Below are positions 16,686 to 29,394 of a stretch of 64,000 bases of DNA, piece after piece (within the stretch, counting starts at the first letter, position 1; every line of letters begins with the position of its first letter). The DNA comes from Nanobdellota archaeon. GTDB taxonomy: Archaea; Nanobdellota; Nanobdellia; Pacearchaeales; GW2011-AR1. Location: NCBI GenBank assembly GCA_030641715.1, contig DAOWGX010000015.1, positions 560-64,559 on the forward strand, in the 5' to 3' direction. The notes beneath the pieces were generated by a model. It was not told the origin of the DNA. It made no database searches and was given only the letters and a program-made list of their open reading frames with translations. Made by a program: the position numbers and the translations under genes.

Positions 16686-16829
16686 CCTTTAAATACCTCA
16701 ATTTCCCAGTAATTTTAGTTCCATCCAAAACTTAAATGTTTGGATGATGAGAATTTTGTGATTGGTTGGTCACGATAAACGGCAAGTGCTATTGTTGGAT
16801 ATCAGATAGTTAGACTATCAGGAAATACT

Positions 16830-17774
16830 ATGACAGATAACAACGGAATACGAAGCGGAAGTTTGCAGTTTTACCCGAGAGTTCGGGCGAAGAAAGTTAT
16901 ACCCAGTGTGAACTGGAAACCGGTTTCAAAAGAAGGCGTCGGACTCATGGGATTCATAGGATATAAAGTCGGAATGATTTCTATCTGGGCAAAAGATAAC
17001 ACCGAAAATTCTTTAACAAAGAACAAAGGAATTGCTATTCCAGCGACGATTGTCGAATGTCCTATAATGAAAATTTATTCGGTTAGGTTCTATAAAAATG
17101 GAAAGGTAATGAGAGATGTGGTAGTTTCGAACGATAAAGATTTGAAAAAAAGCGTGAAGATTTCTAAAAAATTAGGAGATTTGGAAAACATCGACGGCTA
17201 TGAAGATGTAAGAGTTATTTTATATTCTAACGTAAAAAAAACAGTTGTTGATAAAAATAAAACTGACCTAATCGAAGTCGGTGTTTCCGGTTCTGTCGAG
17301 GAGAAATTGAATTTTATTAAAGAGAAAATCGGAAAAGAAATTTCTGTAAATGAAGTTTTTAACGAAGGGCTAGTAGATATTAGGGCAGTCACGAAAGGTT
17401 ACGGAACTCAAGGACCTATGAAAAGATTCGGCATCGCTCTGAAATCTCATAAGTCTGAAAAAGGAAGAAGACGACCGGGTTCTTTAGCACCCTGGCATCC
17501 CTGTAGAGTTACCTTTAGGGCACCTCAAGCGGGGCAGACAGGATACCATAGTAGGATAGTCTACAATAAGTTAATTTTAGAAACTGGCAAAATTTCCGAG
17601 AAAGATATAAATCAAAAAAGCGGGTTTAAACATTATGGAGTTGTTAAAACAGATTATATGATTTTGAAAGGTTCTATTCCTGGTCCAAAGAAAAGAGGAA
17701 TTATGATAACCACTGCTATTCGGCCAACCAAATATCAAGTTAAGAAAAAGTTCGAGGTGCTTGAATTAAGATGA
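16830..17774 (+). CDS. rpl3: 50S ribosomal protein L3.
   Basis: GTQGPMKRFG ... FKHYGVVKTDYMILKGSIPGPKKRGIM is L3. It is the first gene of the S10-spc-like cluster. Confidence 0.9.
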   Translation: MTDNNGIRSGSLQFYPRVRAKKVIPSVNWKPVSKEGVGLMGFIGYKVGMISIWAKDNTENSLTKNKGIAIPATIVECPIMKIYSVRFYKNGKVMRDVVVSNDKDLKKSVKISKKLGDLENIDGYEDVRVILYSNVKKTVVDKNKTDLIEVGVSGSVEEKLNFIKEKIGKEISVNEVFNEGLVDIRAVTKGYGTQGPMKRFGIALKSHKSEKGRRRPGSLAPWHPCRVTFRAPQAGQTGYHSRIVYNKLILETGKISEKDINQKSGFKHYGVVKTDYMILKGSIPGPKKRGIMITTAIRPTKYQVKKKFEVLELR

Positions 17775-18052
17775 GAGATGAAATTTATTGTGAACATAAA
17801 AGGAAGTGTAAAAATATTGATTGTGATGGGAAAATAAAATATTATGATTCAGTAAAAGAATATTGTGCGGGATTTAAATCTGTGGCAACTAACGAATCTT
17901 GGAGGCCGGAGACAAGGAAGCGTCTTGGCATGAAGCCAGGGACATGTAAAGAATCTTGGGTTAGATGCAATATTACAGAAAATCTAACATTACATCGAAG
18001 ACAAGTTAATCTTCTTGAAAAAATAGCAGATAAAATAGAGATTAAAAAATAA
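17771..18052 (+). CDS. Cys-rich small protein (93 aa) inserted between L3 and L4.
   Basis: Translationally coupled to L3 (ATGA overlap). It has six Cys (C7, C13, C18, C32, C59, C66) and is not a canonical r-protein. Confidence 0.4.
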   Translation: MRDEIYCEHKRKCKNIDCDGKIKYYDSVKEYCAGFKSVATNESWRPETRKRLGMKPGTCKESWVRCNITENLTLHRRQVNLLEKIADKIEIKK

Positions 18053-18053
18053 A

Positions 18054-18839
18054 ATGAAAACAAAACTATTCAACAAAACAGGAAGCGAAAAAGGCACAAT
18101 AGATCTACCAAAGAATTTTTCAGTTAAAATTAGAGAAGATATTTTGTCGAAGGTGTTTGAGGCACAGAGAGGAATTTATGCCCAAGCTTATGGTGCGAAA
18201 GAAGGCGCCGGTGCCCAGTATTCTGCTTCGGGAATCATAAAAAAGAAAAGGCATGACTGGAAAGCCTCTTACGGTAAAGGAATTTCTCGAGTTCCTCGAA
18301 AAGTCATGTCAAGACATGGTGCAAGCTTTAACTGGATTGGTGCCACAGTCTCAAATACTCGGGGAGGACGAAGACCTCATGCACCCCGAAGTGAAAAGAA
18401 TCCTTTTAAAAAAATTAATAAAAAGGAACTTTTGATTGCATTTAATTCTGCTTTAGCAGGGACCATCAACGCGAAGTTTTTAGAGAAGAAGTACGGACGA
18501 AAAGCTGAATCAGGATTCGTCTTCGACGATAAAATCCTAAATATTAAAACTAAAGATTTTATTATGACTATGAAAAAAGTTTTTGGAGACGCATTTGATA
18601 ATGTTTTGAAACACAAATCTATTAGGGCAGGTATCGGAAAGATGCGGGGTCGAAAATATAAATCTAATGCAGGATTATTGTTTGTTCTCGGAAGCGAAGA
18701 GAAGATGAAACAGAAAGGAATAGAAATTGTAAATGTCAATAATTTAACAATTAAAGATTTATCGCCTAATGGAGAACCTGGAAGATTAGTTTGCTATACA
18801 GAAAAAGCAATTAGTGAAATCGGAGGAAGGTTCAAATGA
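18054..18839 (+). CDS. rpl4: 50S ribosomal protein L4 (L1e).
   Basis: Operon position, and GKGISRVPR...GGRRPHAPRSEK. Confidence 0.85.
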   Translation: MKTKLFNKTGSEKGTIDLPKNFSVKIREDILSKVFEAQRGIYAQAYGAKEGAGAQYSASGIIKKKRHDWKASYGKGISRVPRKVMSRHGASFNWIGATVSNTRGGRRPHAPRSEKNPFKKINKKELLIAFNSALAGTINAKFLEKKYGRKAESGFVFDDKILNIKTKDFIMTMKKVFGDAFDNVLKHKSIRAGIGKMRGRKYKSNAGLLFVLGSEEKMKQKGIEIVNVNNLTIKDLSPNGEPGRLVCYTEKAISEIGGRFK

Positions 18840-21606: not shown

Positions 21607-21906
21607 GTGGATATTTGCCCAAAGTGTGGATTACCTGTTCCGGCTTGTGTTTGTAACGAAATAGCGAAGACACAACAACAGATCGACGTTAGAACCGAGA
21701 AGCGACGTTTCGGAAAAATCAACACGATAATAAGTGGCTTCGATGACGGTGTTGATGTAAAAGATATCGCAAAACAGCTCAAAATGAAACGAGCTTGTGG
21801 AGGCACAGTAAAAAATAAAGTCATAGAATTGCAAGGGAATCACCAAGGTCATATAAAACAAATTTTGATTCCGATGGGATTCAATGAGGAACAAATTAAC
21901 GAATGA
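21607..21906 (+). CDS. sui1: Translation initiation factor SUI1 (aSUI1/eIF1).
   Basis: An N-terminal Cys cluster (CPKCGLPVPACVC) plus the SUI1 core RRFGKINTIISGF...ACGGTV. This is the typical archaeal position. Confidence 0.8.
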   Translation: MDICPKCGLPVPACVCNEIAKTQQQIDVRTEKRRFGKINTIISGFDDGVDVKDIAKQLKMKRACGGTVKNKVIELQGNHQGHIKQILIPMGFNEEQINE

Positions 21907-22259
21907 ATAAGATGGTAAAAACGAGAATAGTAAAAGATAATATAAGGGTCAAATGTAAAGATAGACTTTGTCCTATTCATGGAGATAGAAAATTGAAGAG
22001 GAGGGGTAGAACTTTTGAAGGAGTTGTAGTTAAGAAATTATCTGGCAGGGTCACGATTCAATTTGAAAGAATGTTGAAATTGCCTAAATATGAAAGGTAT
22101 GAAAAACGAAAGACCAAGATTCATGCGAGGTTGCCTGATTGCATAAGTGACAATGTAGGAGTTGGAGATTTAATTCAGATCGCAGAAACTCGACCAATTA
22201 GCAAGATGATTCATTTTGTTGTTAGCAAGGTTGTTAGAAAATTGGAGGTGAAGTCATGA
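21903..22259 (+). CDS. rps17: 30S ribosomal protein S17.
   Basis: GVVVKKLSGRVTIQFERMLKLPKYERYEKRKTKIHAR is S17-like. Confidence 0.85.
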   Translation: MNKMVKTRIVKDNIRVKCKDRLCPIHGDRKLKRRGRTFEGVVVKKLSGRVTIQFERMLKLPKYERYEKRKTKIHARLPDCISDNVGVGDLIQIAETRPISKMIHFVVSKVVRKLEVKS

Positions 22260-22483
22260 GAGAAGTAGCATTAGAGTTATATATTGGAGACAGTCTTAAA
22301 TATGCAATTACCGGTGAATACAGCGGAACTGGTGATTTTGGTTTGTCTTCAGAGATTTGTATAAAAGACTGTCACCCTCGCACCATTGAAAAATTATTAT
22401 CTAATCTTGAGATTATAGCATCCACTGCAGACTCGCCAGATAAAACTTACGAAATAAAAATAAAATTAGGAGAGGAGAAATGA
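22256..22483 (+). CDS. Small hypothetical protein (75 aa) inserted between S17 and L14.
   Basis: Coupled overlaps at both ends (ATGA). It shows no Rpp29 or r-protein signature. Confidence 0.35.
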   Translation: MREVALELYIGDSLKYAITGEYSGTGDFGLSSEICIKDCHPRTIEKLLSNLEIIASTADSPDKTYEIKIKLGEEK

Positions 22484-26674: not shown

Positions 26675-27220
26675 ATGATGCCAAAACATAAAATGAGCAA
26701 ACGGACGTTGAAGCGGAGAAGAAGGGAAAATCGGACAGATTATAAGACAAGACGAATCTTGTTGACGTCGGGAATTCCAAGAATAGTTGTGCGAAGAACC
26801 AATAAATACTTCATCCTTCAGGCCGTTGAAAGTAAAGAGGCACAAGACAAAGTTACTGCAACAGTTACATCTAAAGAACTTTTAAAAAATGGATGGAATG
26901 CCAAAATGGGTGGAAGTCTAAAGTCGATTCCTGCAGGATATCTAACAGGTTTACTTTTAGTTAAGAAACTTAAGGGCAAAAAATATATTGTAGATTTAGG
27001 GATGGCTCGAACAATTGCAGGCTCGAGAGTGTTCGCAGTCGTTAAAGGTTTGGTCGACGGTGGTTTGAATATTTCAGCAAATGAAATAGTTTTTCCATCA
27101 GAAGAAAGATTAAATGGAGAACACTTGAAAAGCGAATTAAAAAGCATGATTGCAAAAATTCGTCAGAATATATCCTCGCCAAAAGATGTAAAGAAGGAGT
27201 TAAAACAAAATGACAACTAA
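26675..27220 (+). CDS. rpl18: 50S ribosomal protein L18.
   Basis: RRRRENRTDYKTRRILL...PRIVVRRTNKYFILQAV. Confidence 0.85.
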   Translation: MMPKHKMSKRTLKRRRRENRTDYKTRRILLTSGIPRIVVRRTNKYFILQAVESKEAQDKVTATVTSKELLKNGWNAKMGGSLKSIPAGYLTGLLLVKKLKGKKYIVDLGMARTIAGSRVFAVVKGLVDGGLNISANEIVFPSEERLNGEHLKSELKSMIAKIRQNISSPKDVKKELKQNDN

Positions 27221-28061
27221 AGACGAAGTAAAAATCAAAGCAAAAGAATTGACTCCTGAAGAACAATTGAAGAGTATGACTGAAAAAGTGGACGCAAAAG
27301 AGAAGATTAAAGAAGACGCTGTCTCGAAAGAAGCGGATGAAACGTTTAAAGTCGAAGAAGGTCGTAGCAAGTTTAAGAGAGAAGATTGGAAAGACAGGTT
27401 TGCCCGTGAAGCTCGGGAGAAATTAGATAATTGGGTTCCTAGGACGCAGTTAGGCAGGGATGTTCGTGCTGGAAAGATTGAAAACATTGACGAAATTTTT
27501 GCTGAAGGTCGGAAGATTATGGAGCCCGAGATTGTAGATTTGTTAATTAAAGATTTGAAGACAGATAGTTTATTTATCGGTCAGGCAAAAGGAAAATTTG
27601 GTGGCGGGAAGAGGAGAGCATTTAGGCAGACTCAGAAGAAAACAAAAGAAGGTAATGTTTTGACTTTTGGTGTTATGGCTGTAGTCGGCGACGGACATGG
27701 ACACGTCGGACTTGGATACGGTCGAGCTTCCGAAACGCTGCCTGCAAAAGAAAAAGCATTTAGAAATGCCAAATTGAATATTGTTAAAATCCCTCGAGGC
27801 TGTGCGAGTTATGATTGTTCATGTGACGAAGAACATAGCATCCCCAATATTGTCGAGGGAAAATGTTCCTCCGTTAGTGTCAAGTTGATGCCAGCTCCAC
27901 AGGGAACTGGTTTGGTAATTGGAGATGAAATGAAAAAGATTTTAGGGGCTGCAGGGATAAAGGACATTTATAGCAAATGTTTGGGAAACACTAAAACGAC
28001 ATTTAATACTGCGAAGGCATGCATGAAGGCATTGAATAAATTGGGAGATATAAAATTATGA
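27210..28061 (+). CDS. rps5: 30S ribosomal protein S5 with a Lys/Glu-rich N-terminal extension.
   Basis: VVGDGHGHVGLGYGRASE and the dsRBD pattern. Confidence 0.9.
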   Translation: MTTKDEVKIKAKELTPEEQLKSMTEKVDAKEKIKEDAVSKEADETFKVEEGRSKFKREDWKDRFAREAREKLDNWVPRTQLGRDVRAGKIENIDEIFAEGRKIMEPEIVDLLIKDLKTDSLFIGQAKGKFGGGKRRAFRQTQKKTKEGNVLTFGVMAVVGDGHGHVGLGYGRASETLPAKEKAFRNAKLNIVKIPRGCASYDCSCDEEHSIPNIVEGKCSSVSVKLMPAPQGTGLVIGDEMKKILGAAGIKDIYSKCLGNTKTTFNTAKACMKALNKLGDIKL

Positions 28062-28914: not shown

Positions 28915-29394
28915 ATGAATATAAGAGAAGAATTTATGATGAAAGCTATTGAGGCAGCGAAAGAATCTGCAAAAAAAGGAGATTATGCTATTGGAGCCGT
29001 AGTTGTAAAAGATGATGAAGTTATCTCAGTAGGATATGAAACTTTAAAATCTGATAAGGATCCTGTGAATGGCCATGCGGAAATTGATGCCATTCGGAAA
29101 GCGTGCAAAAAATTAAATCAACCATATCTTGAAAATTGTGTTTTATATTCTACTCATGAACCATGTCCAATGTGTGCTTCTGCTTCAGTTTGGGCAAAGA
29201 TAGATACTATTGTTTTTGGAGTTTCTAGAGAAGATATGATTAAAGAAATGAAGAAAAAGTCAAGTGGAAAATTTTCTTGGAGACAAATTGACATTTCTTG
29301 TAAAGAGGTATTAGACAGAGGAATGCCCAAAATAAAATTGGTTTCAGGATTATTAAGAGATGAATGCCTGAAACTTTTTGATTTATCAAGTTAA
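28915..29394 (+). CDS. CMP/dCMP-type (CDA-fold) zinc deaminase.
   Basis: HAEIDAI ... PCPMCASA is the zinc-binding pair. Size is 159 aa. The gene lies between L15 and SecY. Confidence 0.8.
   Translation: MNIREEFMMKAIEAAKESAKKGDYAIGAVVVKDDEVISVGYETLKSDKDPVNGHAEIDAIRKACKKLNQPYLENCVLYSTHEPCPMCASASVWAKIDTIVFGVSREDMIKEMKKKSSGKFSWRQIDISCKEVLDRGMPKIKLVSGLLRDECLKLFDLSS

Follow-up and report, generated by a model that had tools for sequence, protein, structure and literature searches.

The ribosomal protein (r-protein) super-operon of archaea harbors several passengers which are not ribosomal, for example aSUI1, the RNase P protein Rpp29, adenylate kinase and SecY. Small zinc-binding r-proteins of archaea and eukaryotes (eL37, eL43, eL42, eS27, eL40 and similar) and the free-standing homing endonuclease genes that sit between conserved genes in T4-like phages are further systems with which an additional gene among r-protein genes can be compared. 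In this study, an open reading frame (ORF) of 93 codons, referred to as X (protein P0001), was analyzed, which lies between rpl3 and rpl4, the genes of the r-proteins L3 and L4, in a Nanobdellota archaeon of the Pacearchaeota type (DPANN). The window, i.e. the whole stretch of DNA under investigation, comprises 64,000 nt of contig DAOWGX010000015.1 (GCA_030641715.1). It is rather likely that X is a translated accessory gene of an orphan family, which has captured the start of L4, relays ribosomes to L4 and encodes a small, probably metal-binding protein.

ATGA overlaps couple translation by termination-reinitiation (TeRe) in archaea and bacteria (Huber et al. 2019, PMC6728339; 2023, PMC10666635), and for the geometry of a -4 overlap or a 1-nt distance tight coupling was shown experimentally in one archaeon and one bacterium (PMC6728339; PMC10666635). 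In Haloferax volcanii as well as in E. coli, TeRe is almost abolished when the genes are about 20 nt apart (Huber et al. 2023, PMC10666635). X resembles the TeRe-coupled pairs with ATGA/TGATG overlaps described in these studies, as it is co-directional with its neighbors and shows a -4 overlap at its 5' end and a distance of 1 nt at its 3' end. Unlike these pairs, X is a third, non-conserved ORF that separates two genes of ancient coupling, which it would bridge, and its coupling is read from the sequence. The published work also ties such overlaps to subunits of heteromeric complexes (Huber et al., PMC6728339; PMC10666635); a partnership of this kind is unlikely for the orphan X.

Relatives of the locus were found by synteny, for which 64 loci (L001-L064) that surround L3 homologs were retrieved from genome and metagenome data of Pacearchaeota, Woesearchaeota and Nanoarchaeota metagenome-assembled genomes. 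The features of the window around X, partly defined by comparison with these loci, are the following:

16830..17774, + strand: rpl3 (uL3), 314 aa, the upstream coupling partner (Pfam Ribosomal_L3, E=9.4e-58; stop codon TGA at 17772-17774).
17754..17759, + strand: GAGGTG, a Shine-Dalgarno-like motif inside the 3' end of rpl3, 11 nt before the ATG (TTTGAGGTGCTTGAGTTACGATGA conserved in relatives).
17771..17774, + strand: ATGA, in which the ORF starts and L3 stops (-4 overlap), which corresponds to the ancestral L3/L4 junction by comparison with insert-free relatives.
17771..18052, + strand: the 93-aa orphan ORF X (ATG at 17771, TAA at 18050-18052; based on the ORF list, coding potential and homologs in the same slot).
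17783..17842, + strand: N-terminal Cys module, residues 5-24 (IYCEHKRKCKNIDCDGKIKY), with C7/C13/C18 and a CxGxI motif (family alignments).
17890..17959, + strand: window-specific in-frame expansion, which holds the non-conserved C59 (13-nt direct repeat; 26-residue gap in the alignment with L001).
17966..18052, + strand: conserved C66 and predicted C-terminal helix (CNITENLTLHRRQVNLLEKIADKI...), based on blastn versus L001, region-wise substitution rates (pS/pN) and AlphaFold (AF2) models.
18050..18056, + strand: TAA-A-ATG, the stop of the ORF, 1 nt and the start of L4, i.e. the hand-over point.
18054..18839, + strand: rpl4 (uL4), 261 aa, the downstream partner (Pfam Ribosomal_L4, E=6.4e-17).

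The chance of an open frame of 93 codons at the local base composition is P ~6.5e-4. The codon-usage log-likelihood of the ORF was +0.155 in its own frame and negative in all other five frames (neighboring r-protein genes L3, L4, L23, L2 and S19: +0.17 to +0.28), and the arrangement L3-ORF-L4 was seen in three assemblies. An RNA element in place of a gene was rejected in view of the absence of an Rfam match for the ORF region and its unremarkable predicted RNA fold (z-score -1.0). Judged by these properties, the 93-aa ORF that separates rpl3 from rpl4 is a real additional gene. An earlier note on this DNA had described a six-Cys ORF of 93 aa at 17771-18052, coupled to L3 by an ATGA overlap with its stop codon. 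The ORF is borne out by its coordinates and coding-like codon usage, and the geometry of the overlap could be confirmed (L3 TGA at 17772-17774); the second coupling end at L4 had not been part of that note.

The geometry of TeRe-coupled genes, i.e. co-directional genes with an overlap of -4 or -1 or a distance of a few nt, was found at both ends of the ORF, which by its sequence is built for translational coupling at its 5' and its 3' end. Presumably, DNA was inserted just after the ancestral ATGA joining L3 and L4. As a result of this position, the new ORF would have inherited the start codon of L4 as well as the GAGGTG motif at 17754-17759, which would precede the L4 start in insert-free relatives and the inserted ORF in the window. 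Ribosomes ending L3 at UGA would then reinitiate on the overlapping AUG, read 93 codons, stop at UAA and reinitiate 1 nt further on at L4. Since no obvious Shine-Dalgarno motif of its own was found for L4 in the window, L4 would depend on the ribosomes delivered by translation of the ORF. The ORF would have to span the whole insert, because an untranslated spacer of about 20 nt almost abolishes coupling, and selection for the delivery of ribosomes to L4 would keep it open and gap-filling. X would be a passenger of a highly expressed operon and not a ribosomal protein, and the conserved Cys core suggests that the product itself acquired or retained a function, which is most likely metal binding.

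Inspection of the same position in related genomes, as proposed in the earlier note, revealed homologous ORFs in L001, L032 and probably L006. The ORF in the L3/L4 slot of L001 encodes 71 aa (BLASTP E=6e-9 versus the window protein) and that of L032 82 aa (E=1.6e-4 versus the L001 protein), whereas the 80-aa Cys-rich ORF in the L3/L4 slot of L006 (identical to L031) shows the same motif with a score that is not significant; it is probably the fourth member of the family. In a leave-one-out analysis with hidden Markov models, every left-out member ranked first among 6,361 six-frame fragments (E=6.6e-5, 0.007, 0.016 and, for L006, 1.3). Profile searches of 5.8e9 protein clusters with three and four members found only the four family proteins, and a word-indexed search of the 5.8e9 clusters with the window protein returned only the protein itself. 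No meaningful match was obtained in Pfam, NCBIfam, PHROGs (E>=0.02) or in PDB sequence and PDB profile searches; a scan of viral contigs with the family alignment gave no relatives, and no paralogs occur elsewhere in the window or the fetched loci. By these comparisons, the ORF belongs to a new and tiny orphan family with three significant members and one probable member.

When 1.84e9 representatives were searched exhaustively with phmmer, five long proteins with repeats were obtained, which comprise beta-propeller proteins with WRIEKR repeats, NLNLHPE repeats, C2H2 fingers and the 2,509-aa protein P0005 without Pfam family. These were rejected as homologs, since they are mutually unrelated and their scores are summed over repeats. 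The best single high-scoring segment pair of 32.7 bits corresponds to E ~3,000 database-wide, and the similarity lies mostly within the window-specific segment. In addition, the family profile shows no likeness to them (hhalign E=0.85), and neither the window nor the loci contain a gene of this type.

The Cys residues of the window protein are located at positions 7, 13, 18, 32, 59 and 66, and the earlier note had taken these six as a pattern suggestive of metal binding. Invariant columns of the family alignment are M1, I5, C7, C18, G20, I22, C66, L72 and Q78; C13 is a fourth Cys present in all four members, which is shifted in the alignment. C7, C13, C18 and C66 are common to the family, whereas C32 and C59 are specific for the window, with C59 inside the lineage-specific in-frame insertion, so that the pattern is conserved in part. 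Four ligand residues conserved across homologs, as in a generic Cys4 metal protein, are provided by C7, C13, C18 and C66, and these most likely bind a metal ion, probably Zn. Their spacing is C-x5-C-x4-C...C in the window and C-x5..7-C-x5..11-C...C in the relatives. The isoelectric point (pI) varies within the family (9.3 in the window; 6.1, 5.8 and 5.3 in the others). The window copy carries about 26 additional residues, which include a segment of 19 codons bracketed by a 13-nt in-frame direct repeat. This repeat (TAAMGAATCTTGG) occurs at 17890-17902 and 17947-17959, i.e. 57 nt (19 codons) apart, in the segment absent from L001. The ORF still changes its length with the frame kept.

The AF2 model of the window protein reached a predicted local distance difference test (pLDDT) value of 46. 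For the compact L001 protein (P0008), the pLDDT was 69 and the predicted template modeling score (pTM) 0.57; this model has three short strands, then a long helix, and places the conserved Cys residues at the ends of these elements; the confidence in the Cys loop (residues 11-19 of P0008) was below 50. The protein encoded by X may thus form a small domain of about three beta-strands and a long C-terminal helix.

The evolutionary rates between the window and L001 are given as the proportions of non-synonymous (pN) and synonymous (pS) differences, with a codon shuffle as null; 67 codons of X could be aligned, 33-34 per region, and the N-terminal half refers to the first 33 aligned codons (residues 1-34):

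L3: pN 0.066, pS 0.593; null pN 0.72, null pS 0.70.
L4: pN 0.078, pS 0.708; null n/a.
X, all aligned codons: pN 0.361, pS 0.400; null pN 0.67 (standard deviation 0.04), null pS 0.55 (standard deviation 0.08).
X, N-terminal (Cys) half: pN 0.38, pS 0.52; null pN 0.67, null pS 0.55.
X, C-terminal third: pN 0.34, pS 0.31; null pN 0.67, null pS 0.55.

L3 and L4 showed dN/dS values of 0.04-0.06, and X reaches about 5 times their pN. Within the Cys half of X, the non-synonymous divergence is about 8 standard deviations below the codon-shuffle null while the synonymous sites are saturated, which therefore points to constraint at the protein level. Only the C-terminal part of X can still be aligned with L001 at the DNA level (blastn, 75% over 81 nt). 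Since synonymous sites are conserved in the C-terminal third as well, a constraint at the nucleotide level beside the start of L4 is indicated there. As far as these small samples of codons tell, X is far less constrained than the r-proteins, yet it is not drifting freely.

In a neighbor-joining tree of L3+L4, the family is confined to one clade, which is one subclade of the Pacearchaeota, and always occupies the L3/L4 slot. The carriers (window, L001, L032 and L006) represent 4 of about 13 genomes of their subclade and interleave with the insert-free L005, L026, L028, L003 and L004; further insert-free genomes are known from partial loci (L002, L025, L027 and L060). In the insert-free relatives, L3 and L4 are directly joined by the same ancestral ATGA. 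Even the nearest relative of the window, L005 (L3 88%, L4 91% identity), is without the gene; it has a 65-aa orphan at L4/L23 and none at L3/L4. Due to this interleaving, at least four precise losses or at least four gains are needed. The similarity of the members roughly follows the relatedness of the hosts, with window and L001 being closest, followed by L032 and then L006. According to this distribution and the rates given above, the gene is accessory, dispensable and fast-evolving.

Like the established passengers of the r-protein super-operon, X is embedded among r-protein genes on their strand and would be expressed together with them; stop and start codons frequently overlap in such arrangements. 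In the window, the ORF at 21607..21906, which was identified by eye from the ORF list, is presumably aSUI1. Those passengers are ancient, widespread and of known function, whereas X occurs in few genomes of one subclade, evolves fast and belongs to no known family. A broad conservation of gene and position across archaea, as for passengers of the SUI1/Rpp29 type, was not found (four members in 5.8e9 clusters). None of the tested defining features of zinc-ribbon r-proteins, homing-endonuclease cassettes or SUI1/Rpp29-type passengers was found in X.

Several observations weigh against X being a relaying gene for a metal-binding protein. Calculated with its own dS, the dN/dS of X is 0.86. Given the small sample of 67 codons and synonymous sites that are either saturated or compressed by composition, it is uncertain how strongly selection acts on the protein. 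The conservation of the C-terminal third appears to be at the nucleotide level and not specifically at the protein level. None of the four family members contains a CxxC, and hence there are no paired zinc knuckles; the spacing of the Cys residues is, from the alignment, not that of a classical zinc ribbon, and metal binding is deduced solely from the conservation of the Cys residues. The structure models are weak (pLDDT 46 and 69), and Foldseek searches with them gave no match in the PDB (best E=4) or the viral structure library. Finally, the membership of L006 has weak statistics, and the distribution might reflect either one gain and at least four precise losses or repeated transfer.

X is not the only insert of this kind. 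When an insert is defined as a gap of >40 nt at a junction, and non-redundant loci among the 64 fetched are counted, inserts occur at the L3/L4 junction in 11/45 loci, at L4/L23 in 13/38, at L23/L2 in 10/37 and at L2/S19 in 6/29. L3/L4 is therefore not special, with inserts at 24-34% of the L3/L4, L4/L23 and L23/L2 junctions, and the statement of the earlier note that an extra gene in the L3-L4-L23-L2 string is unusual does not hold for this lineage. A single ORF on the same strand tiles 28 of the 31 gaps of >=150 nt, and the remaining three contain two ORFs or show a longer overlap. At the 5' end, 17 of the ORFs have an offset of -4 and the others one of +1, +2 or -1; at the 3' end, distances of -4 and of +1 were found 10 times each. 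Spacers of 44-108 nt are tiled by mini-ORFs of 14-35 codons. The 52-nt L3/L4 spacer of L017 (4954-5013; also in L042 and L044) forms a mini-ORF of 19 codons with an ATGA at each end, next to which 11 nt of the L4 5' end are duplicated (ATGAAAGCAAA); by its sequence, it resembles a junction insert in a minimal or nascent form. In L008 and L010, three or four junctions in a row carry inserts.

The cargo of the inserts is diverse, with no relatedness from one insert to the next, and about 90% of the ORFs are without a Pfam domain. Recognizable exceptions are an RNase_T-type exonuclease (L049, L051), a HExxHxxGxxH protein (L055) and a weak nucleoside deoxyribosyltransferase-like match (L051). The L4-L23 gaps of L049 (211 aa) and L051 (229 aa) contain homologous RNase_T/DEDD-type 3'-5' exonuclease genes with 54% identity (L049: Pfam PF00929, E=9e-11), which shows at the sequence level that junction cargo can be a bona fide enzyme. 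In the L3/L4 slot of L055 (860-1351), an ORF of 163 aa carries the metzincin-type motif HELGHVAGLEH (HExxHxxGxxH; Reprolysin_4, 21 bits versus a cutoff of 22) and is flanked by a 13-nt junction duplication (TTAAGATGAAAAT). Such duplications of 11-13 nt flank four inserts (L055, L010, L017 and L049), but they are not general (median 6 nt, none with p<=0.01), and the longest junction repeat of the window ORF is 6 nt (p ~0.46). A transposition signature by target-site duplication was rejected for this reason. Literature searches yielded no account of junction inserts of this type in the r-protein operons of DPANN archaea.

Selection for TeRe coupling would explain why X and nearly all other inserts tile their gaps exactly. 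As a tentative extension to Pacearchaeota and Woesearchaeota, the junctions may be regarded as a gene nursery, in which inserted DNA survives only as an exactly tiling ORF, since the downstream essential genes need TeRe, and in which translation at the level of r-proteins turns inserts into new proteins. The Cys4 ORF could then be a young protein which is part-way, with a constrained Cys core, the rest drifting, in-frame insertions gained, and the gene lost in sister lineages. By itself, X is one more small orphan protein, and the interest lies in its context, the lineage-wide tiling pattern: although the L3-L4-L23-L2 string is supposed to be invariant, it has been invaded repeatedly within one DPANN lineage, and the invaders follow a rule, as they share the strand of their neighbors, begin at the stop of the gene before them and finish at the start of the gene after them. 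The junction inserts represent a natural comparative test of the claim that coupling tolerates almost no untranslated spacer, and the junctions are a concrete place to search for new proteins, which could arise there, or be captured, while high expression is enforced.

If X were a pure relay ORF, the insert would be junk or selfish DNA, of which only the frame from the L3 stop to the L4 start is kept for carrying ribosomes, and the peptide would be functionless. Several observations fit this explanation: the inserts tile exactly whatever their sequence, including the mini-ORFs of 14-35 codons such as that of 19 codons in L017, most junction ORFs are orphans, the window copy tolerated an in-frame insertion of 19 codons, and presence and absence are patchy among close relatives. 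The dN/dS of 0.86 and the strong distance dependence of TeRe (PMC10666635) agree with it as well. What speaks for a functional product instead are three invariant Cys columns and a fourth common Cys in members which are otherwise only 24-42% identical, the low non-synonymous divergence of the Cys half at saturated synonymous sites, and homology that is still detectable (E=6e-9) between genomes in which the synonymous sites of L3/L4 are near saturation. A mere relay function is hence rather unlikely.

Unknown ORFs in archaeal r-protein operons historically proved to be r-proteins, and the conserved Cys residues of X recall the many small zinc-binding r-proteins of archaea. X might be a zinc protein specific to this lineage, which belongs to or associates with the ribosome and is produced together with L3 and L4 to join the large subunit. 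Its location inside the r-protein operon, the tight coupling, its small size and the basic window copy (pI 9.3) would suit such a role, which the earlier note had implied and which is probably wrong. The gene is absent from the nearest relatives, whose L3/L4 are 88-91% identical (L005; also absent in L025 and L026), the other members are acidic (pI 5.3-6.1), and X evolves about five times faster than L3/L4 at non-synonymous sites. The sporadic presence, variable charge and fast evolution therefore argue against a role as r-protein. X further lacks the CxxC...CxxC knuckles of the known zinc-binding r-proteins and has no match to r-protein families, PDB chains (including solved ribosomes) or folds. 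The relatives' junction inserts include the RNase_T-type exonuclease and the metalloprotease-like protein, and because of such inserts at neighboring junctions the position in the operon does not imply a ribosomal function. Altogether, this role is improbable; if the Cys4 protein were nevertheless ribosome-associated, it would be a lineage-specific component added to the little-known DPANN ribosome.

It is very improbable that X is a selfish mobile cassette, for example a degenerate free-standing gene of the homing-endonuclease type, which targets the L3/L4 junction and spreads horizontally. X resembles the homing endonuclease genes of T4-like phages in its sporadic occurrence between highly conserved genes with precise empty sites in close relatives, and its distribution within the clade is patchy. 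The highly conserved flanks would favor transfer by homologous recombination, and junction duplications flank some other inserts. The weak I-HmuI NUMOD-like match (E=0.18) reaches only 11.8 bits versus a cutoff of 27 bits, though, and no nuclease domain is present. Neither at the window ORF nor in general was a significant flanking repeat or target duplication found. Relatives are missing in viral contigs, PHROGs and the viral structure library, copies are missing elsewhere in the window and the loci, the similarity of the members roughly tracks host relatedness, and X is fully integrated into the coupling of the host genes. A spurious ORF in an enlarged intergenic spacer, as it would have appeared to the earlier note if homologs were missing and codon usage were non-coding, is effectively refuted even though the protein is an orphan without annotated function or family match, since the open frame is improbable by chance (6.5e-4), codon usage is coding-like in this frame only, homologous ORFs with conserved Cys residues fill the same gap in three other genomes and the boundaries are exact at both ends.

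Besides X, a second orphan junction ORF was detected in the window:

22256..22483, + strand: ORF of 75 aa (MREVALELYIG...), set between S17 and L14 and joined to each by an ATGA overlap.

A GGAGAGGAG motif is located ahead of the L14 start. This ORF has no Pfam match and no relatives in the fetched loci, most of which end short of S17-L14.

Upstream of rpl3, a further element was found:

16686-16829 (core 16715-16829): leader upstream of rpl3, 144 nt "intergenic", starting with the TATA/BRE-like CCTTTAAATACC.

The sequences at the same position in L001, L005, L026 and L032 share 92-94% identity with this leader, which exceeds the identity of the L3 DNA (73-82%). It is predicted to form 3-4 hairpins, with compensatory changes in 7 of 22 predicted pairs across 11 genomes, and had no Rfam match. 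As a candidate RNA element of the r-protein operon, the stretch could be a novel structured 5' leader or have an autoregulatory role. The region upstream of rpl3 was unusable as a neutral-rate control, since such a structured leader is strongly conserved itself.

In the same operon, between L15 and SecY, an ORF of the cytidine/dCMP-deaminase family is encoded at 28915-29394 on the + strand (MafB19-deam/dCMP_cyt_deam_1, E ~1e-25). S5 (27210-28061; 283 aa) and L24 (22883-23347; 154 aa) are unusually long, and their Pfam domains cover only residues 139-280 and 12-120, respectively. This suggests that they carry extensions at the N or C terminus which are particular to the lineage, or that their start codons were chosen wrongly.

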